Source: Escherichia phage EC128
Length of the DNA: 64,000 nucleotides
Sequence record: ON210139.1
Direction: 5' to 3' (one strand)
The translations under genes and the position numbers were made by a program. Every line of letters starts with the position of its first letter. The first letter of the stretch is position 1. Below the pieces are notes generated by a model. That model saw nothing but the letters and a program-made list of their open reading frames with translations, did no database searches and had not been told where the DNA came from. Below, in pieces: positions 4,532 through 63,101 of this stretch.

Positions 4532-4561
4532 GTTTACAAGACTGTTCCTCCGTGGTACTAT
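4532..4561 (+). promoter_or_regulatory. T4-type early promoter
   Basis: -35 GTTTAC, 18-bp spacer, TACTAT; leader ACTATTACCCTATCAACTA also found at 25671. Confidence 0.55.
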
Positions 4562-4589
4562 TACCCTATCAACTACGGAGGAACACAAA

Positions 4590-4703
4590 ATGAAAAAGAT
4601 TGTTAAAGCTATATGGAATGTAGTTATAATACTAATAGTTTTGAGTATATTCCCAATCGTTTTAATGATTGATGTATTAAACGTTTACTTTGGATTTATG
4701 TGA
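4590..4703 (+). CDS. small hydrophobic membrane peptide (37 aa)
   Basis: SD GGAGGAACACAAA + ATG; almost entirely hydrophobic (IWNVVIILIVLSIFPIVLMI). Confidence 0.4.
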   Translation: MKKIVKAIWNVVIILIVLSIFPIVLMIDVLNVYFGFM

Positions 4704-7726: not shown

Positions 7727-8362
7727 ATGTCTAAAGTAACTTACATCATCAAAGCTTCTAACGATGTTCTGAATGAAAAAACTGCTGCGATTTTAATTAC
7801 TATTGCTAAGAAAGATTTCATTACAGCTGCAGAAGTTCGTGAGGTGCATCCAGATTTAGGTAACGCAGTAGTTAATAGTAATATTGGGGTATTGATTAAA
7901 AAAGGCCTGGTGGAGAAATCTGGTGATGGATTAATCATTACAGGTGAAGCTCAGGATATTATTTCAAATGCAGCAACTTTATATGCACAGGAAAATGCTC
8001 CGGAACTACTGAAAAAACGAGCAACTCGTAAAGCTCGCGAGATTACTTCCGATATGGAAGAAGATAAAGACCTCATGTTAAAACTTTTAGATGAAAATGG
8101 ATTTGTTCTTAAAAAGGTTGAAACTTATCGTAGTAATTATCTTGCCATTTTAGAAAAACGCACTCACGGAATTCGTAATTTTGAAATTAACAACAATGGA
8201 AACATGCGAATTTTTGGATACAAAATGATGGAACATCATATTCAGAAATTTACTGACATCGGAATGTCATGTAAAATCGCTAAAAGCGGTAATGTGTATC
8301 TTGACATTAAACGCTCGGTAGAAAACATTGAAGCAGTAATCACTGTAGCATCTGAACTGTGA
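7727..8362 (+). CDS. motA: MotA activator of middle-period transcription
   Basis: 211-aa ORF; recognised as T4 MotA. Confidence 0.95.
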   Translation: MSKVTYIIKASNDVLNEKTAAILITIAKKDFITAAEVREVHPDLGNAVVNSNIGVLIKKGLVEKSGDGLIITGEAQDIISNAATLYAQENAPELLKKRATRKAREITSDMEEDKDLMLKLLDENGFVLKKVETYRSNYLAILEKRTHGIRNFEINNNGNMRIFGYKMMEHHIQKFTDIGMSCKIAKSGNVYLDIKRSVENIEAVITVASEL

Positions 8363-26789: not shown

Positions 26790-27149
26790 ATGGCGGAAAA
26801 TATGAATTTTAATTATTACCCTATTCTATTAGAAAAAGACGCGAAACAGCCAAAATGGCAAGGTCCTCAGTTTATTAAAGGTGTCTATCAATTAGTAGTT
26901 CCTAAAGACAAGATTTATAGTAGCTGTTTCACTGAATCCGCTTGCAGTATTTTCGGTAATAGTTCTCCGTATTGGAATTTTGACATAAAGCTGGATAGAA
27001 ATATCGATATTTGGTTGAAAGCTATGGATATTGGTAATATCACGTTTGATGAGAATAATTATCATATTATTGGTCGTTTTTCCAAACGCGGTAAAGAATT
27101 ATATTTCACGCCTGAAATTGAAAGAAAATTTGATGCTAAACCGTATTGA
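26790..27149 (+). CDS. hypothetical protein (115-119 aa) encoded on an insertion between frd and td
   Basis: ORF (best start probably ATG 26802 with GGCGGAAAAT) in a ~415-bp segment flanked by direct repeats AAATGAAA (26776-26783 and 27193-27200). Confidence 0.5.
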   Translation: MAENMNFNYYPILLEKDAKQPKWQGPQFIKGVYQLVVPKDKIYSSCFTESACSIFGNSSPYWNFDIKLDRNIDIWLKAMDIGNITFDENNYHIIGRFSKRGKELYFTPEIERKFDAKPY

Positions 27150-31917: not shown

Positions 31918-32593
31918 ATGAGCACAGTTTTTAATACAAATCCAGTTGATGTTTTAAAAGAACCTATGTTTTTTGGTTCAGGTCTTGGTATTGCGCGTTA
32001 TGATATTCAACGGCATCGAGTATTTGAAGAACTTACAGAGAAGTCCTTATCATTTTTCTGGCGTCCCGAAGAAGTAAACTTAATGATGGATGCTGCACAG
32101 TTTAATAAGCTTCCTCAGTATCAGCAGAATATTTTTACTAACAACCTGAAGTATCAATCACTTTTGGATAGCATTCAGGGTCGTGCACCGTCTGCTGTAC
32201 TTATGTCATTAATTTCAGACCCAAGCCTTGATACATGGGTTGCTACATGGACTTTTAGTGAAACTATTCACTCTCGTTCGTATACTCATATTATGCGAAA
32301 TCTTTATACCGATCCATCGAAGGTATTTGATGAAATTGTATTAGATGAAGCTATTATGAAACGAGCTGAATCCATTGGACGTTATTATGATGATGTCTTG
32401 GTTAAAACCCGTGAATGGGAAAATGCTAAAGAATTTGTAGAACTAGCTAAAGAATCTCCTGATGCCGACTTTCGTTTAAACCGAGCTATTAAACAAGAAG
32501 CCGAAGCTAAACGTGCTTTAATGAAGTCTCTTTACCTCTGTTTACACGTTATTAATGCCTTAGAAGCTATTCGTTTTTATGTATCTTTTGCGT
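31918..32593 (+). CDS. nrdB: ribonucleotide reductase small subunit, exon 1
   Basis: MSTVFNTNPVD...ALEAIRFYVSFA; frame closes immediately inside the intron; 5' splice site inferred after T 32593. Confidence 0.75.
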
Positions 32594-33684
32594 AAAATGC
32601 GCCTTTAAACGGTAACGTTTATCGAAAACTCCTTTAATTGCTGGAAAGTCCTTTATAGGAAAACTAGCAGCCAAGGTTTTGCTTGCACCTTTAATTAGTA
32701 TAATATAAATATGATTATACTTTTAAGAGGATGCACAATTGAACTATAGAAAAATTTGGATAGATGCTAACGGACCTATACCTAAAGATTCTGATGGAAG
32801 AACATACGAAATCCATCATAAAGACGGTAACCGTGAAAATAATGATTTAGATAATTTGATGTGCCTTTCTATACAGGAACATTATGATATACATTTAGCT
32901 CAAAAAGATTACCAGGCTTGTCATGCTATAAAGCTTAGAATGAAATATTCTCCTAAAGAAATTTCTGAATTAGCTTCTAAAGCCGCAAAATCTAGAGAAA
33001 TCCAGATTTTTAATATCCCTGAAGTACGAGCTAAAAATATTGCCTCTATTAAATCTAAGATAGAAAATGGTACATTTCATCTTTTAGACGGTGAAATACA
33101 GCGTAAATCTAATTTAAATAGAGTTGCATTAGGTATACATAATTTTCAACAAGCTGAGCATATTGCAAAAGTTAAAGAACGCAATATTGCAGCTATAAAA
33201 GAAGGTACTCATGTATTTTGCGGTGGTAAAATGCAGTCAGAAACTCAATCAAAACGGGTAAATGACGGTTCACATCATTTCTTGTCAGAAGATCATAAGA
33301 AAAGAACATCAGCAAAAACATTAGAAATGGTTAAGAACGGGACCCATCCTGCACAAAAAGAAATCACATGTGATTTCTGCGGTCACATTGGTAAAGGTCC
33401 TGGATTTTATCTAAAACATAATGACAGATGTAAATTAAATCCAAATAGAATTCAATTGAATTGTCCATATTGTGATAAGAAAGATTTATCACCATCAACA
33501 TATAAACGATGGCACGGCGACAATTGCAAAGCAAGGTTCAACGACTAGTCTTCGGACGTAGGGTCAAGCGACTCGAAATGGGGAGAATCCCTCTGGGATT
33601 GTGATATAGTCTGGTCTGCATAGTAATATGTAGCAGTTCATAAGAGAACGGGTTGAGAATTAGCGAGCTCAATCGAACATAACG
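32594..33684 (+). mobile_element. nrdB group I intron (about 1.09 kb) carrying a full-length HNH endonuclease ORF
   Basis: interrupts the conserved FYVSFAC/TFNFHKNMEIMEGNAKI region; the proposed junctions (exon ends T, intron ends G) restore an in-frame NrdB; exact boundaries are inferred. Confidence 0.6.
32739..33548 (+). CDS. I-TevIII: I-TevIII-like HNH homing endonuclease (intron-encoded, full length)
   Basis: 269-aa ORF; HNH motif EIHHKDGNRENNDLDNLMCLSIQEHYDIH and C-terminal Cys clusters; opens at TTG 32739 with SD AAGAGGA 7 nt upstream, no in-frame ATG. Confidence 0.75.
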   Translation: MNYRKIWIDANGPIPKDSDGRTYEIHHKDGNRENNDLDNLMCLSIQEHYDIHLAQKDYQACHAIKLRMKYSPKEISELASKAAKSREIQIFNIPEVRAKNIASIKSKIENGTFHLLDGEIQRKSNLNRVALGIHNFQQAEHIAKVKERNIAAIKEGTHVFCGGKMQSETQSKRVNDGSHHFLSEDHKKRTSAKTLEMVKNGTHPAQKEITCDFCGHIGKGPGFYLKHNDRCKLNPNRIQLNCPYCDKKDLSPSTYKRWHGDNCKARFND

Positions 33685-34187
33685 GTACCTTTAACTTCCA
33701 CAAGAATATGGAAATCATGGAAGGTAATGCCAAGATTATGAAGTTCATTGCACGTGATGAGCAGCTTCACCTTAAAGGCACTCAATATATTATTCGTCAA
33801 CTTCAATCCGGTACTGATGGTGATGAATGGGTTAAAATTGCTCAAGAGTGTGAACAAGAAGCAGTTGATATTTTCATGGAAGTTAACCGCCAAGAAAAAG
33901 ATTGGGCAGTTCATTTATTTAAAGATGGCGATGTTCCTGGATTAAATACAAATAGCATGTGGAGCTTTATTGATTACTTAACTGTATCTCGTATGAAACA
34001 GTGTGGTCTTCCATGCCCAATTACCGATGCTCCGGTTAAACACCCATATCCTTGGATTCGTGAATATCTTAATTCTGATAATGTTCAATCCGCGCCACAA
34101 GAAGTAGAACTGTCATCTTACCTTGTTGCGCAGATTGATAATGATGTTGATGATAAAGTTATGATGAGTTTTAAAAAATACTTTTAA
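33685..34187 (+). CDS. nrdB: ribonucleotide reductase small subunit, exon 2
   Basis: in-frame continuation (C)TFNFHKNMEIMEGNAKIMKFIARDEQLH... through the stop. Confidence 0.65.
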
Positions 34188-34214: not shown

Positions 34215-35802
<1,588 letters not shown>

Positions 35803-35805
35803 GCT

Positions 35806-35835
35806 GTTTACAAGTCCCTCGTGTTGTGTTACAGT
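35806..35835 (+). promoter_or_regulatory. early promoter for alc; part of a 54-bp promoter and leader repeat
   Basis: GTTTAC, 18-bp spacer, TACAGT; near-identical copy at 49909. Confidence 0.5.
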
Positions 35836-35866
35836 AGTCTTACTGACATAACATGAGGACTTTATG

Positions 35867-36370
35867 ATGGATTTGCAGCTTATTACTACTGAGATGGTCG
35901 TTGAAGCATACGGTGATACTACAGATGGGATTTCTGTATTCAAAGGAAATCGTCGAGTTGGATATATCACTGATCTTAAGAAAGATTTAGCTAAGCAAGT
36001 TAAGCGGAAAACGACCGTTAAAGAATATCGAAATCGTCGTCTTGAGAAAGCCCGTGATATGCTTCCTAATGCAGTTGAGGAGATGAAAGTCTTTTTAGAA
36101 AATCAACTCGTTAAGTATGATTGTGAAGTGTTCATTAATCAGACTCAACCTAATGTTCATATTAACAACTGTAAATGCTATATCATCGTTAATCCTTTGA
36201 CAGGAAAACATCGTCTTGGAATTAGTAATCCAAATCGTAGCGCATCAGATATGGCAGAAGATGTTGAGGCATGCTTTAAAATTTCTAAATCTCCGGCTGA
36301 ACATCATATTTTAATTAACGGTCTTTCTCAAGACGATATTATAGAGGTTATTAAAACTTTATGCAATTAA
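35867..36370 (+). CDS. alc: Alc protein (blocks host transcription on cytosine DNA)
   Basis: 167 aa from the second ATG of MMDLQLITTEMV. Confidence 0.85.
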   Translation: MDLQLITTEMVVEAYGDTTDGISVFKGNRRVGYITDLKKDLAKQVKRKTTVKEYRNRRLEKARDMLPNAVEEMKVFLENQLVKYDCEVFINQTQPNVHINNCKCYIIVNPLTGKHRLGISNPNRSASDMAEDVEACFKISKSPAEHHILINGLSQDDIIEVIKTLCN

Positions 36371-42695: not shown

Positions 42696-42725
42696 GTTTA
42701 CAGTATAGTTCCTTTGTGATAGTAT
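42696..42725 (+). promoter_or_regulatory. T4-type early promoter
   Basis: GTTTAC, 18-bp spacer, TAGTAT. Confidence 0.5.
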
Positions 42726-42752
42726 TATCTTACACAAACAAAGGAGAATAAA

Positions 42753-43085
42753 ATGAAAACGATTAATCTGAACGCTGCAGTTAAAACTAAATGCTTCAAT
42801 GGTAAATATAATGAAACTATGTGGTTCTTAATGGCAGTTGAAGGTGATATTATTGAAGTAGAAACAACAGAAGGTATGGGAACAGATTTCACCTTTACAA
42901 TTCAAGTTCATAATTTCTTTACTGGTTGGATTTATGAATTGAATACAGTAATCGTTGGAAAAATTGAACAAAATGAATTAGGCGAATGGCATTATGTTAC
43001 AGCTCGCCAACGTGCAGAACGCTTAATTGAGAAGATGAAAAAAGTTGGTAAACTTGACATGCAGCATTGGAAAGTAGTAAAATAA
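42753..43085 (+). CDS. hypothetical protein (110 aa)
   Basis: ORF with SD AAGGAGAATAAA. Confidence 0.55.
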   Translation: MKTINLNAAVKTKCFNGKYNETMWFLMAVEGDIIEVETTEGMGTDFTFTIQVHNFFTGWIYELNTVIVGKIEQNELGEWHYVTARQRAERLIEKMKKVGKLDMQHWKVVK

Positions 43086-43845: not shown

Positions 43846-44042
43846 TGAAATTCTTTTTAGGTCAAACTGTTGAATTAAAGGGAGTTGGTATACCTGGATT
43901 AATTTCTAAGGTTCTACCTCCATTTAAATGGAGTGGTATTCAAATAAAAGAGGCTTATATTGTTTCCTGGGTAGATGGAAATGAAGACCTTCGTATGGGT
44001 GATGAATTATCTCCTATCTACGGATTAAAGGAATTAGTATGA
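43845..44042 (+). CDS. hypothetical protein (65 aa)
   Basis: ATGA-coupled ORF. Confidence 0.45.
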   Translation: MKFFLGQTVELKGVGIPGLISKVLPPFKWSGIQIKEAYIVSWVDGNEDLRMGDELSPIYGLKELV

Positions 44043-47446: not shown

Positions 47447-47469
47447 AGGCCTTCGGGCCTTTAATTTTA
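47445..47469 (+). terminator. terminator-like hairpin
   Basis: AAAGGCC-TTCG-GGCCTTT followed by AATTTTAT. Confidence 0.5.
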
Positions 47470-47495
47470 TAAATAGAATAAACACTAGAGAGGAT

Positions 47496-49547
47496 ATGAT
47501 GGAACTAATTACAGAATTATTTGACGAAGATACTACTCTTCCGATTACAAACTTAAATCCAAAGAAGAAAATACCACAAATTTTTTCAGTTCATGTTGAT
47601 GATGCAATTGAACAACCAGGCTTTCGTTTATGTACCTATACATCTGGAGGTGATACTAATCGTGATTTAAAGATGGGCGATAAAATGATGCATATTGTTC
47701 CTTTTACATTAACCGCTAAAGGTTCAATTGCTAAATTGAAAGGTCTTGGTCCAAGCCCAATTAATTATATCAATTCGGTTTTTACTGTTGCAATGCAAAC
47801 AATGCGTCAGTATAAAATTGATGCCTGTATGCTCCGTATTCTTAAGTCTAAAACTGCTGGTCAAGCTCGACAAATTCAAGTTATTGCTGATAGACTTATC
47901 CGTAGTCGTTCAGGTGGCAGATACGTCCTTCTTAAGGAACTCTGGGATTATGATAAAAAGTATGCATATATTCTTATACATCGCAAAAATGTATCACTAG
48001 AAGACATTCAAGGGGTTCCGGAAATTAGTACCGAGCTCTTTACTAAAGTTGAATCGAAGGTCGGTGATGTTTATATCAATAAAGATACTGGAGCTCAAGT
48101 AACTAAAAATGAGGCAATTGCAGCATCTATTGCACAAGAAAATGATAAACGTTCTGATCAAGCTGTAATCGTTAAAGTTAAAATTTCCCGTAGAGCAATT
48201 GCACAAAGTCAGTCGTTGGAATCTTCTAGATTTGAAACACCGATGTTTCAAAAATTTGAGGCTTCAGCGGCAGAATTAAATAAACCAGCGGACGCTCCTT
48301 TAATTTCTGATTCTAATGAATTAACGGTAATTTCTACTTCAGGATTTGCACTAGAGAATGCTCTTAGCAGTGTTACAGCTGGGATGGCATTCAGAGAAGC
48401 TTCTATAATTCCTGAAGATAAAGAATCCATTATTAATGCAGAAATAAAAAATAAAGCTTTAGAAAAATTACGAAAAGAATCTATTACTTCAATAAAAACT
48501 TTAGAAACTATTGCTTCTATCGTCGATGATACTTTAGAAAAATATAAAGGTGCTTGGTTTGAAAGAAATATTAACAGACATTCGCATTTAAACCAAGATG
48601 CTGCAAATGAGTTAGTACAAAATTCTTGGAATGCAATAAAAACAAAGATTATTCGAAGAGAATTACGTGGATATGCTCTTACCGCTGGATGGTCATTACA
48701 TCCTATAGTCGAAAATAAAGATTCATCTAAATACACACCAGCACAAAAACGCGGAATTCGTGAATACGTAGGTTCAGGATATGTAGACATAAATAATGCT
48801 CTTTTGGGATTATATAATCCAGATGAGCGTACAAGTATTTTAACAGCACCTGAAATAGAACAAGCCATTGATAATTTAGATTCAGCCTTTAAAAATGGTG
48901 AACGATTACCAAAAGGTATTACTTTGTATCGTTCACAACGAATGTTACCTTCAATATACGAAGCAATGGTAAAAAATCGAGTTTTTTATTTTAGAAACTT
49001 TGTGTCAACATCATTATATCCAAATATTTTTGGTACTTGGATGACTGATTCATCTGTGGGTGTTTTACCAGACGAAAAGCGTCTAAGTGTTTCTATTGAT
49101 AAAACTGATGAAGGACTAGTAAATTCTAGCGATAATTTAGTTGGAATTGGATGGGTTATTACTGGGGCTGATAAGGTTAATGTTGTTTTACCCGGTGGAA
49201 GTTTAGCGCCTTCAAATGAAATGGAAGTCATTTTGCCACGTGGATTAATGGTCAAAGTTAATAAAATAACCGATGCATCTTACAACGATGGAACAGTTAG
49301 AACTAACAACAAGCTTATTCAAGCTGAAGTTATGACCACAGAAGAACTCACCGAATCGGTAATCTATGACGGAGACCATTTAATGGAAACTGGTGAATTG
49401 GTTACAATGACAGGTGATATAGAAGACAGAGTTGACTTTGCATCATTTGTTTCATCAAATGTTAAACAGAAAGTAGAATCATCTCTTGGAATTATTGCGT
49501 CTTGCATAGATATTGCAAACATGCCTTACAAGTTCGTTCAAGGATAA
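47496..49547 (+). CDS. alt: Alt ADP-ribosyltransferase (packaged; modifies host RNA polymerase alpha)
   Basis: 683-aa ORF (probable start at the second ATG, MELITELFDED); recognised as T4 Alt. Confidence 0.9.
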   Translation: MMELITELFDEDTTLPITNLNPKKKIPQIFSVHVDDAIEQPGFRLCTYTSGGDTNRDLKMGDKMMHIVPFTLTAKGSIAKLKGLGPSPINYINSVFTVAMQTMRQYKIDACMLRILKSKTAGQARQIQVIADRLIRSRSGGRYVLLKELWDYDKKYAYILIHRKNVSLEDIQGVPEISTELFTKVESKVGDVYINKDTGAQVTKNEAIAASIAQENDKRSDQAVIVKVKISRRAIAQSQSLESSRFETPMFQKFEASAAELNKPADAPLISDSNELTVISTSGFALENALSSVTAGMAFREASIIPEDKESIINAEIKNKALEKLRKESITSIKTLETIASIVDDTLEKYKGAWFERNINRHSHLNQDAANELVQNSWNAIKTKIIRRELRGYALTAGWSLHPIVENKDSSKYTPAQKRGIREYVGSGYVDINNALLGLYNPDERTSILTAPEIEQAIDNLDSAFKNGERLPKGITLYRSQRMLPSIYEAMVKNRVFYFRNFVSTSLYPNIFGTWMTDSSVGVLPDEKRLSVSIDKTDEGLVNSSDNLVGIGWVITGADKVNVVLPGGSLAPSNEMEVILPRGLMVKVNKITDASYNDGTVRTNNKLIQAEVMTTEELTESVIYDGDHLMETGELVTMTGDIEDRVDFASFVSSNVKQKVESSLGIIASCIDIANMPYKFVQG

Positions 49548-49550
49548 ATC

Positions 49551-49940
49551 ATGGAACTTATTACATAATTATTTGACGGCGCTTCGGCGCCGGTTGTTAA
49601 CTTAAATCCTAAGCATAAAATACCACAAATTTTTGCTATTCAAGCCGGCGAAGAAAGCGTGCTTCCTGGATTTAGATTTTGTACATACACCTCTGGCGGT
49701 GATACGAATAAAAACGTTAAGCCGGGCGATAAAATGATGCATATCGTAATGATAGGTGTTAATGAGAAATTATCACTGGTTAAGCTTAGAAACTTGGGTG
49801 GAAATCCAATTGGCGTCATTAATGCTGTTTTTGATACTGCTCTTCAAACAATGAAGCAGTATAAAATTGACGCATGCCTATTCCGCGTACTAAAAAGTTC
49901 AAAATGTAGTTTACAAGTCCCTCGTGTTGTGTTATAGTAG
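49551..49940 (+). pseudogene. truncated alt-paralogue remnant (homologous to the Alt N-terminal ~130 aa) with an in-frame TAA at codon 6
   Basis: MELIT*LFDGASAPVVNLNPKHKIPQIF...GFRFCTYTSGGDTNKN...QTMKQYKIDACLFRVLKS aligns with Alt residues 2-130; homology ends where the promoter repeat begins. Confidence 0.6.
49909..49938 (+). promoter_or_regulatory. early promoter; second copy of the 54-bp promoter and leader repeat
   Basis: GTTTACAAGTCCCTCGTGTTGTGTTATAGTAGTCTTACTGACATAACATGAGGA, one mismatch to 35806-35859. Confidence 0.5.
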
Positions 49941-49969
49941 TCTTACTGACATAACATGAGGAACACAAA

Positions 49970-50260
49970 ATGAAATCTTCTTTGCGCTTTTTAGGTCAAG
50001 AACTTGTAGTTGAAGGCGTTATTCCTGCTGATAATGCTTTTAACGAAGCAGTTTATGATGAATTTATCAAAATTTTCGGAACAGATAAAAAGTTTGGAAT
50101 TTTTCCTTCTGAAAATTTTTCAAAGCCAGAACAGACTGAAAGTATTTTTCAGGGTGTAGTAACAGGTAAATTTGAGTCAGAAGCTCCTGTAAAAATTGAA
50201 GTTTATATTGAAGACGGTTTAGTTGCTTCAGTTGCTGCTTTCATTTCATTCCGTAAATAA
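49970..50260 (+). CDS. hypothetical protein (96 aa)
   Basis: ORF with SD GAGGAACACAAA downstream of the repeated promoter. Confidence 0.55.
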   Translation: MKSSLRFLGQELVVEGVIPADNAFNEAVYDEFIKIFGTDKKFGIFPSENFSKPEQTESIFQGVVTGKFESEAPVKIEVYIEDGLVASVAAFISFRK

Positions 50261-50264
50261 AAAT

Positions 50265-50286
50265 ATGGGGACCGAAAGGTCCCCAT
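50265..50286. terminator. bidirectional terminator hairpin between convergent genes
   Basis: ATGGGGACC-GAAA-GGTCCCCAT between the + strand ORF end and the gene 54 end. Confidence 0.55.
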
Positions 50287-61682: not shown

Positions 61683-63101
61683 ATGACTTTTACAGTTGAT
61701 ATAACTCCTAAAACACCTACTGGAGTTATAGATCAGACTCAGCAGTTTACTGCTACACCCAGTGGTCAAACTGGAGATGGACCTATTACATATGCTTGGA
61801 CTGTAGATGATGTTCCACAAGATGGAGCTGAAGCAACTTTTAGTTATGTATTAAAAGGACCTGCCGGTCAAAAGACTATTAAAGTAGTTGCAACAAATAC
61901 AGTTCCAGAAGCTGAAGCTGAAACAGCAGAAGCTACTACAACTATCACAGTTCAAAATAAGACACAAACGACCACCTTAGCTGTAACTCCTAATAGCCCT
62001 GACGCTGGAGTAATCGGAACAGCTATTGAATTTACTGCCGCTTTAGCTTCGCAGCCACCAGGTGCATCTGCTACGTATCAATGGCACGTTGACGGTTCTC
62101 CTGTGGGCGAAGCAACTTCTGCTACATTCAATTACACTCCTACCACAAGCGGAGTTAAAACAATTAAGTGTGTGGCTCAAGTAACCGCGACAGATTATGA
62201 TGCAAAAGAAGTTACTTCTAATGAAGTGTCACTGACTGTTAATAAAAAGACACAGACAACTACCTTGGCAGTAACTCCCGATAGTCCTTCAGCTGGAGTA
62301 ATCGGAACAGCTGTTGAATTTACCGCTACTTTAGTTTCTCAACCTGATGGAGCATCTGCTACGTATCAGTGGTATGTAGATGATTCACAAGTTGGTGGAG
62401 AAACTAACTCTACATTTAGCTATACTCCAACTACAAGTGGAGTAAAAAGAATTAAATGCGTAGCCCAAGTAACTGCAGAAAATTACAATGAAAAGGAAGT
62501 TACTTCTAATGAAGTATCATTAACGGTTAATAAGAAGACAATGAATCCACAGGTTACATTGACTCCTCCTTCTATTAACGTTCAGCAAGATGCTTCGGCT
62601 ACATTCACGGCTAATGTTACTGATGCTCCAGAAGAAGCGCAAATTGCGTATTCATGGAAGAAAGATTCTTCTCCAGTAGAAGGGTCAACTAATGTATACA
62701 CTGTTGATACATCATCTATTGGAAGTCAAACTATTGAAGTTACTGCAACTGTTACTGCTACTGATTATGATAGCAAAACTATCACAGCAGAAGGTCAAGT
62801 TCAGGTAACTGATAAAGTTGCTCCAGAACCAGAAGGTGAATTACCTTATGTTCATCCTCTTCCACATCGCACTTCAGCTTATATCTGGTGCGGTTGGTGG
62901 GTTATGGATGAAATCCAAAAAATGACTGAAGAAGGTAAAGACTGGAAAACTGACGACCCAGATAGTAAGTACTACTTGCATCGTTACACTCTTCAGAAGA
63001 TGATGAAAGACTATCCAGAAGTTGATGTTCAAGAATCGCGTAATGGATACATCATTCATAAAACTGCTTTAGAAACTGGTATTATCTATACCTATCCATA
63101 A
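61683..63101 (+). CDS. hoc: Hoc highly immunogenic outer capsid protein with four tandem Ig-like domains plus capsid-binding C-terminus
   Basis: 472-aa ORF; conserved C-terminus LPYVHPLPHR...IIYTYP; two ~96-aa Ig-like units in tandem (61959-62246, 62247-62534). Confidence 0.85.
   Translation: MTFTVDITPKTPTGVIDQTQQFTATPSGQTGDGPITYAWTVDDVPQDGAEATFSYVLKGPAGQKTIKVVATNTVPEAEAETAEATTTITVQNKTQTTTLAVTPNSPDAGVIGTAIEFTAALASQPPGASATYQWHVDGSPVGEATSATFNYTPTTSGVKTIKCVAQVTATDYDAKEVTSNEVSLTVNKKTQTTTLAVTPDSPSAGVIGTAVEFTATLVSQPDGASATYQWYVDDSQVGGETNSTFSYTPTTSGVKRIKCVAQVTAENYNEKEVTSNEVSLTVNKKTMNPQVTLTPPSINVQQDASATFTANVTDAPEEAQIAYSWKKDSSPVEGSTNVYTVDTSSIGSQTIEVTATVTATDYDSKTITAEGQVQVTDKVAPEPEGELPYVHPLPHRTSAYIWCGWWVMDEIQKMTEEGKDWKTDDPDSKYYLHRYTLQKMMKDYPEVDVQESRNGYIIHKTALETGIIYTYP

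Follow-up and report, generated by a model that had tools for sequence, protein, structure and literature searches.

The question taken up here is why two genes of a T4-like phage, alc and alt.-3, should be preceded by nearly the same 54 bp of promoter and leader at loci about 14 kb apart. The DNA analyzed was a 64,000-nucleotide stretch of Escherichia phage EC128 (sequence record ON210139.1), here called the window, and is that of a Tequatrovirus (T4-like phage); its best database matches were ~97.7% identical at alc and, at the alt.-3 locus, 99.9% identical (Yersinia phage fPS-2). An earlier note on this DNA, made from its letters alone, had drawn attention to the repeat and suggested a mobile promoter and leader cassette that could also act as a substrate for recombination or deletion. 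We found that the repeated unit is an imperfect palindrome, the RNA of which is predicted to form a hairpin of ~22 bp that the note had missed, and we propose that the unit would serve as a self-contained T-even-type early expression cassette comprising a promoter, a hairpin, and a Shine-Dalgarno (SD) sequence. Such a cassette would allow alc and alt.-3 to be translated only from transcripts begun at their own early promoters.

The repeated promoter-leader unit

A pattern search for the 54-mer found exactly two matches in the window, both on the + strand. The features of the two loci are as follows.

35806-35859, + strand: repeat copy 1, the full early promoter, hairpin, and SD cassette upstream of alc
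35807-35812, + strand: copy 1 -35 hexamer TTTACA, inside the T4 early motif GTTTACA
35830-35835, + strand: copy 1 -10 hexamer TACAGT, with an extended -10 TG at 35827-35828 and a 17-nt spacer
~35842, + strand: predicted copy 1 start site, placed by the usual 7-nt distance after the -10
35812-35862, + strand: predicted copy 1 RNA hairpin (5' arm, 35812-35836; loop, 35837-35840; 3' arm, 35841-35862)
35855-35859, + strand: copy 1 SD GAGGA, inside the hairpin 3' arm
35864-36370, + strand: alc, inhibitor of host transcription, served by copy 1
34678-35802, + strand: rnlA (gene 63, RNA ligase 1), upstream of copy 1
49909-49962, + strand: repeat copy 2, upstream of alt.-3, with -35 at 49910-49915, TG at 49930-49931, and -10 TATAGT at 49933-49938
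49958-49962, + strand: copy 2 SD; the predicted copy 2 start is at ~49945
49917-49964, + strand: predicted copy 2 RNA hairpin, with its loop at 49940-49943
49970-50260, + strand: alt.-3, conserved, 96 amino acids (aa), served by copy 2

The two copies agreed at 53 of 54 bases, the sole mismatch being C versus T at repeat position 27, which is the third base of the -10 hexamer. An independent repeat search returned the same pair (family D8, 98% identical, spaced 14,103 nt), and the single-mismatch repeat described in the earlier note was thus borne out by both searches. In 100 dinucleotide-preserving shuffles, the 54-mer pattern was not matched once. Identity ended at both borders: the first G of the unit was preceded by gcT at one locus and by gtA at the other, and the final GGA was followed by C and by A, respectively. 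At both loci, the upstream stop codon (TAG or TAA) abutted GTTTACA and the unit ended at the SD. Copy 1 occupied the whole intergenic space between rnlA and alc, and copy 2 lay between a remnant of an alt paralogue and alt.-3, with gene 54 next on the opposite strand. BLASTP comparison of the alc and alt.-3 proteins gave an E value of 1.4, on which homology running into the two coding regions was rejected; as the earlier note had supposed, the genes served by the two copies are unrelated. A possible alt.-3 paralogue near 43853, hinted at by repeat family D16, was also dropped, because the open reading frame (ORF) found there, a 65-aa gene at the 30.5 position, has only a short N-terminal motif in common with it.

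A consensus scan found in both copies the -35 element TTTACA, a 17-nt spacer, an extended TG, and a -10 element of TACAGT (copy 1) or TATAGT (copy 2). The unit therefore appears to carry a T4-type sigma-70 early promoter of the form GTTTACA-17 bp-TGn-TAYAGT, and the JB75 and ASO78A records annotate predicted promoters at the repeat. No mapped 5' ends for the alc and alt.-3 promoters were found in a literature search that did not cover the T4 literature in subscription journals. An A-rich run, aaaaattataaaaaattta, was present upstream of copy 1, and no comparable run was obvious, by unscored inspection, upstream of copy 2. Because the cassette begins right after the upstream stop codon, any UP element would fall in coding DNA.

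The hairpin between promoter spacer and ribosome site

Folding of the unit as RNA gave a hairpin of -25.7 kcal/mol for copy 1 (z score, -4.75) and the same hairpin at -23.0 kcal/mol for copy 2 (z score, -4.41), and an equally stable fold was obtained in 0 of 200 shuffles for either copy. In repeat positions, the 5' arm spans 7 to 31 and contains the spacer and the -10 element, the loop spans 32 to 35, and the 3' arm spans 36 to 57 and contains the leader and the SD GAGGA. The stem holds three G-U pairs, and the variants C11U, C15U, and G16A are wobble-compatible, all of which fits pairing in the sense RNA and not in DNA. Identity running from the -35 element to the SD is most likely explained because the promoter spacer and the SD leader pair as one hairpin. 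A search of Rfam returned no family match that reached the gathering score anywhere in the window; at the repeat, there was only a chance microRNA match (E = 0.93).

The position of the hairpin relative to the promoter suggests how it might act. With the -10 element at repeat positions 25 to 30, the usual 7-nt distance puts the predicted start site near position 37, immediately 3' of the loop. As the predicted start lies 3' of the 5' arm, mRNA from the unit's own promoter would lack that arm and its ribosome site would be open. Consistent with this prediction, RNA beginning at the predicted own-promoter start was unstructured (z scores, +0.8 and +1.0), and opening the region from SD to AUG was computed to cost 2.1 kcal/mol at alc and 2.2 kcal/mol at alt.-3. 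In read-through RNA, the same opening cost 9.9 kcal/mol (alc) and 12.2 kcal/mol (alt.-3), and the alc SD had a computed unpaired probability of 0.03. Opening energies were preferred because, at alt.-3, the probability of an unpaired SD gave a misleading picture when taken by itself (0.17 in own-promoter RNA, owing to a weak alternative fold of -4 kcal/mol).

Read-through RNA could arise at either locus. The features upstream and downstream of copy 2 that bear on read-through are the following.

47468-47475, + strand: late-promoter motif TATAAATA, 20 nt upstream of alt and directly after a terminator-like hairpin
47496-49547, + strand: alt, coding for the RNA polymerase ADP-ribosyltransferase and read in the direction of copy 2
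49548-49908, + strand: remnant of a second alt paralogue (T4 alt.-1/alt.-2), the TAG stop of which overlaps the first base of copy 2
50265-50286, bidirectional, no strand assigned: terminator-like hairpin ending the alt.-3 transcription unit and facing gene 54

Alt is a virion-packaged, late-made protein, and the position of the late-promoter motif 20 nt upstream of alt fits late synthesis. The next terminator-like hairpin on the strand after 47468 was the one at 50265-50286, beyond alt.-3, and late alt RNA should therefore run through copy 2 into alt.-3; the motif at 47468 is the likely source of such transcripts. Neither repeat copy contained the TATAAATA motif itself. At the other locus, the terminator scan found no terminator-like site between rnlA and alc, and gene 63 is one that we take to be transcribed late as well. 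Read-through into both cassettes is thus plausible, and RNA reading in from rnlA, or from alt and the remnant, would carry both arms of the hairpin such that the SD would be buried. We think it reasonably probable, and well motivated, that the hairpin is a translational insulator that limits translation to transcripts from the adjoining promoter.

The pairing of spacer with SD was followed at alc beyond the genus. Regions upstream of alc were taken from Dhakavirus VR5, Mosigvirus-like JK45, Marfavirus, Kanagawavirus, Gaprivervirus, and Gelderlandvirus, and from 34 IMG/VR loci obtained with an Alc protein profile, and each sequence was folded for minimum free energy (MFE). RNAalifold had been run on a MAFFT alignment of the cross-genus alc cassettes; the arms were out of register, 8 pairs were recovered of which 7 had compensatory changes, and the analysis was replaced. 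In the individual folds, the alc spacer paired with the SD leader in most distinct lineages, including Dhakavirus, Marfavirus, Kanagawavirus, Gelderlandvirus, and many IMG/VR lineages, despite differing sequence (spacer/leader arm pairs TCTCCTCATG/CATGAGGAGA, CCTCGTTTGTT/AACAAACGAGG, AACCTCTCATTTTT/AAAATGAGAGGTT, TCCCATTTTGTTGTGT/ACACTAACAAAATGGGGA, and TCTCCGTTTAG/CCAAACGGAGA). The cross-lineage hairpins ranged from -15 to -26 kcal/mol, with z scores mostly of -3.5 to -6. Moreover, when spacers and leaders of 12 lineages were mixed and matched as duplexes, native combinations averaged -19.9 kcal/mol and foreign ones -11.2 kcal/mol, and the own leader was the best partner in 10 of the 12. We conclude that, at alc, spacer and leader co-vary across genera.

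Several observations weigh against insulation. The SD is not sequestered in some alc lineages, namely the JK45/Mosigvirus-like type and L042, L048, and L060, in the last three of which the stem stops just before the SD, and in VR25 another ORF lies between rnlA and alc. The AUG itself is outside the stem. Within Tequatrovirus, 97.4% of cells were paired, and variation fell almost entirely in the 5' arm and was wobble-compatible (C11U, C15U, G16A, and C/U27 with G/A40); no double compensatory changes were found in the genus, and the shuffle control did not set the structure apart from chance. The structural evidence consequently rests on the cross-genus comparison, which was one of MFE folds and mix-and-match energies and not of a curated structural alignment. 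Finally, the start site is placed by the usual spacing after the -10 element, and the read-through RNA and the translational effect are likewise predictions.

The rival explanation that survives best is that the hairpin acts on transcription or on RNA processing, either as an upstream attenuator or terminator or as an RNase III-type processing site. The hairpin would be equally present in read-through RNA under such a model, and a near-continuous stem of ~22 bp is, on general knowledge, long enough to be a substrate for a double-strand RNase. Stem-loops of the composite early-promoter/stem-loop (PeSL) cassettes known from related phages lowered lacZ expression when placed behind a strong promoter and were read by the authors as terminators or attenuators, a reading that counts against insulation of translation (PMC2839356). 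However, the terminator scan found no intrinsic terminator at either copy and neither hairpin is followed by a T-run (tails CTTTATGATG and ACACAAAATG), and a terminator or processing site would not need the pairing of spacer with SD that is kept at alc across genera. We consider an effect on transcription or processing to be unlikely, if still worth weighing, and translational insulation to be the preferred function of the hairpin.

Other features of these initiation regions were noted. An AUG immediately 5' of the SD (AUGAGGA) starts a mini-ORF of 4 or 5 codons at both loci (window 35853-35867 and 49956-49973); the mini-ORF is not preceded by a separate SD, and at each locus it ends in a UGA that overlaps the main start codon (AUGA), with spacings that differ. 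The same arrangement occurs in VR5, at both loci, and in JK45 at alt.-3. In UFV10 (L019) and 11B_SA_NWU (L020), the first of two alc ATG codons is mutated (ATAATGG), and alc must therefore start at the second ATG, 3 nt farther from the SD. The extra ORF of the Gaprivervirus VR25 (L031, 2793-3106) encodes 77 aa and follows a terminator-like GC hairpin, and alc is there without an early cassette of its own.

Origin of the alt.-3 copy and exchange between loci

A blastn search with the 54-mer found 997 places in 499 phage records, so that nearly all Tequatroviruses, T4, T2, and RB51 among them, have two; the occurrence of the cassette at both sites in other T-even genomes, which the earlier note had proposed to check, thus holds for essentially the whole genus. 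No blastn match at E <= 0.001 lay outside Tequatrovirus, and an exact-pattern scan of IMG/VR found only 5 Tequatrovirus genomes. In T4 (AF158101), the copies lie on the minus strand at 136283-136336 and 123040-123093 and differ at one base. Where both copies were read, they were upstream of alc and alt.-3 in 20 of 20 Tequatrovirus genomes.

Outside Tequatrovirus, alt.-3 cassettes were of another type, in which a small hairpin lies inside the spacer (CCACA-AGGA-TGTGG and variants) and the SD is free. The spacer-hairpin type was found in Dhakavirus, Gaprivervirus, Marfavirus, Gelderlandvirus, and the JK45 type, and the alc-type unit was found at alt.-3 in Tequatrovirus only. The simplest reading of this distribution is that the cassette is native to alc and was copied over the differing, original cassette of alt.-3 in the Tequatrovirus lineage, with ectopic gene conversion following later. 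GTTTACA and GAGGA, which stand at the borders of the block and are common to nearly all early cassettes, could have given the homology for exchange. A separate transfer is visible in Dhakavirus, the members of which all have one alt.-3 leader (L055-L059 and L072-L080). VR5 alone has that leader at alc, where 32 nt through ATGAA are identical to it (L006, 375-430), and the VR5 alc leader represents an independent conversion in the opposite direction, from alt.-3 to alc, with pairing of spacer and SD kept.

Within Tequatrovirus, no position carried a fixed difference between the alc and alt.-3 copies of the 17 genomes with both copies, and four haplotypes were found at both loci. The linked triple T11+T15+A16 was present at alt.-3 in T2, SHFML-11, and one IMG contig and at alc in OE5505, ECML-123-2, and JB75. 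These three phages are the ones read among the nine records (eight phages) that were matched at 98.6% by a haplotype-specific probe. Recurrent mutation is not credible as the source of three identical linked changes at two loci, and we infer that the copies still swap sequence by inter-locus (ectopic) gene conversion between pre-existing cassettes. As a point against conversion, the two copies of one genome did not resemble each other significantly more than they resembled copies in other genomes (permutation p = 0.15): paralogue differences averaged 2.35 within genomes and 2.63 between them, similar to the orthologue values of 2.12 and 2.93. Copies were identical within the genome in 4 of 17 pairs (p = 0.035), a result that is unconvincing alone. 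Homogenization within genomes was therefore set aside as proof of conversion, the case for which rests on the shared multisite haplotypes, and occasional conversion, together with reassortment of alleles 14 kb apart during mixed infections, would be expected to leave no within-genome excess.

The same comparison bears on a simpler history, in which a plain promoter was duplicated once in the Tequatrovirus ancestor and both copies were kept alike only by purifying selection for a strong promoter and SD, the palindrome being a coincidence and the shared variants a product of recurrent mutation. The genus is shallow (~95-98% flanking-gene identity) such that old copies could stay near identical, the single shared variants A16, A32, and A29 are all G-to-A transitions that could recur, and the within-genome association is weak, as given above. 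Nonetheless, T11, T15, and A16 occur linked at either locus in different genomes. Moreover, the spacer at alc varies in concert with the leader from genus to genus, although promoter spacers are normally unconstrained in sequence, and the hairpin z scores are about -4.5 to -5. We conclude that a single duplication is improbable and favor conversion between cassettes that were already in place.

Movement of the unit as an element was considered separately. Neither copy was flanked by target-site duplications, no transposase, endonuclease, or recombinase gene was adjacent in the window, and the sites were fixed; a transposable or homing element was therefore ruled out. Of the mobile cassette proposed in the earlier note, copying of promoter and leader between loci is supported by the multisite haplotypes common to both, but mobility in the manner of a transposable element is not, as the two loci are fixed. 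Likewise, haplotypes that occur at either locus in different genomes support the repeat as a substrate for recombination, but the proposed deletion was not seen, the intervening 14 kb being kept in 20 of 20 genomes examined. The DNA ligase gene (30) and gene 31, both essential in T4, lie between the copies and would be removed by a crossover between the direct repeats; thus, a viable deletion is not expected and only non-crossover events would survive. No ORF insertion or deletion bounded by two cassettes was found, and a neighboring deletion of 1,699 bp in the second alt gene ends at 9-bp repeats, CTAAAAAGT, and not in the cassette.

It is very unlikely that the palindrome acts as DNA, whether as a cruciform or as a protein-binding site, to target recombination or modulate promoter firing. 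The inverted repeat does overlap the promoter, the two loci do appear to recombine, and the authors of the PeSL work speculated on a DNA-binding recombination factor (PMC2839356). However, in DNA, one strand would have G-T and the other C-A in place of the three G-U pairs and the additional U-G variants; the pairing partner conserved for the spacer is in every case the transcript's SD region; and no recombinase or endonuclease gene is nearby.

How far the similarity goes beyond a common promoter was judged from other early cassettes. T-even early cassettes all have GTTTACA, a 17-nt spacer, a TGn -10 element, and a short leader of the ..CAAC..ATGAGGA type, and the promoter architecture was common to 11 cassettes in the window and to 37 candidates in T4, where the survey covered 0-99.8 kb and 122.5-168.9 kb. 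From the -35 element to the ATG, the alc/alt.-3 pair had an identity of 0.89 among the window cassettes, the next-best pair had 0.76, and the median was 0.59; in T4, the pair ranked first of 666 among the 37 candidates. In the window and the T4 survey, alc and alt.-3 were the only pair to share the whole unit, spacer included. The earlier note held that identity exceeded promoter consensus and would have yielded had it proved limited to the generic early-promoter consensus once many promoters were aligned, which was not the case. Chance or a generic consensus as the sole source of the similarity can be dismissed, despite the elements that all T-even early cassettes share, given the 53-of-54 identity, the margin over the next-best and median pairs, and the absence of any match in 100 shuffles.

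Shorter stretches are shared more widely. Other T4 cassettes, at 27080, 55384, 70696, 146875, 163673, and 167086, contain identical runs of 31 to 43 nt from the -10 element through the leader (GGTACTATACAACTATCAACTACTGATACGGATTTGGAGAAT type), and the sharing of promoter and leader appears to be a general T4 habit. The alt.-3 initiation region downstream of the repeat, GGAACACAAAATGAAA (window 49960-49975), has an identical stretch of 16 nt in common with the initiation region of the gene behind the cassette at 4532 (~4580-4595), which hints that segments from SD to ATG are perhaps also exchanged as a mosaic.

Two further observations concern neighboring genes. The second alt paralogue carries its 1,699-bp internal deletion, with the junction at 49889/49890, between two 9-bp direct repeats CTAAAAAGT. 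A full-length second paralogue is present in T2 (L004, 2047-4104), DalCa, RB51, and most Tequatroviruses, the remnant (window 49548-49908) is 97% identical to the T2 gene, and the arrangement of T4 and the window occurs in only 90 of 499 records. The T4 annotation takes alt.-1/alt.-2 for an old duplication of the beginning of alt, but the pair is in fact what the internal deletion has left of a full-length second alt paralogue. Separately, nrdB looks split in the window (31918-34187; ORFs 31918-32595, 32739-33548, and 33708-34187) by an insert containing a 269-aa ORF preceded by TATAAATA at 32704-32711. The insert is similar to the nrdB intron of T4, here with a full-length endonuclease of the I-TevIII type, and no Rfam match to a group I intron was found at nrdB at gathering score.

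Generality and relation to known systems

Pairing of the SD with the promoter region extends to other early genes. At least 3 SD bases were paired to the promoter region in 15 of the 37 candidate T4 early cassettes, ~10 of them convincingly. We raise tentatively, as an idea that is possible but for now somewhat against the odds, that SD-sequestering hairpins embedded in early promoters are a general and largely unrecognized insulator in T4-like phages that ties translation to a gene's own promoter. If so, PeSL-type stem-loops would mainly link translation of early genes to their own promoters and block translation of middle and late read-through RNA, and whole cassettes would spread between genes by gene conversion because both arms must travel together. 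If the reading proposed for alc and alt.-3 themselves is right, identity from -35 to SD would be explained, spacer and leader being the two arms of one RNA structure, and a testable rule would follow by which T4 restricts Alc and alt.-3 to early times despite upstream genes that are transcribed later. Cassette replacement followed by genus-wide concerted evolution would be direct population evidence for cassette shuffling in T4-like phages, and the presence of the design at other T4 early genes would bear on T4 gene expression in general.

Individual hairpins were noted in both genomes. Hairpins between spacer and SD were seen at 4532 in the window (-22.4 kcal/mol; z score, -5.8) and in T4 at 62797 and 65413, apparently upstream of regB and ipII. 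Hairpins that span promoters were seen in the window at 4532-4592, 42696-42755, 39113, 43088, and 25647 and in T4 (AF158101) at cassettes with the -35 element at 8218, 53943, 58780, 62797, 65413, 130310, and 166807; some of the hairpins in this combined set enclose only the -10 element.

The unit fits the T-even early-promoter/stem-loop (PeSL-like) class. PeSL cassettes are known in RB49/phi1, PST/T4, and nt-1/KVP40 and were proposed to mediate modular shuffling (Arbiol 2010, PMC2839356; Comeau 2014, PMC4122927), and 'IP-associated' early-promoter/stem-loop elements were described earlier in T-even phages (Repoila 1994, as cited in PMC2839356/PMC4122927). Like these, the unit is an intergenic composite of stop codon, early promoter (TTTACW-N17-TAYWAT type), stem-loop, SD, and start codon that recurs in the genome and offers otherwise unrelated genes a site for homologous exchange. 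Exchange of that type is represented by haplotype sharing between alc and alt.-3, replacement of the alt.-3 cassette, and the leader transfer in VR5, and related copies are many (37 candidate T4 cassettes, several with identical runs of 31 to 43 nt, and 11 in the window). The unit differs in that its stem-loop spans the -10 element and pairs the spacer with the SD, whereas the PeSL papers put the T4/PST stem-loops just upstream of the promoter, and in that gene conversion would act between two fixed loci 14 kb apart, whereas PeSL exchange is by excision and insertion of ORF mini-circles. The word "translation" has 0 occurrences in the PeSL papers. Recombination in T4 requires homology of no more than ~50 bp (Singer 1982, cited in PMC2839356).

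In its evolution, the unit resembles dispersed repeats kept alike by ectopic conversion and concerted evolution, as the paralogous copies are without fixed differences and have multisite haplotypes in common. Here, however, a 54-bp regulatory cassette and not a gene would be converted, and alleles reassort between genomes with no within-genome excess.

In its predicted action, the unit resembles the T4 genes e, soc, 49, and I-TevI, in which late promoters lie inside hairpins that sequester the ribosome-binding site and the promoter's own transcript is the only translatable one (PMC3014915). In both cases, the SD lies in a helix in RNA initiated upstream, and the promoter lies inside the DNA of the 5' arm, an arrangement that is computed for the unit described here. 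The difference is one of timing: the promoter of those genes is late (or middle) and expression is delayed, whereas the promoter here is a sigma-70 early promoter and translation is predicted to be early only.

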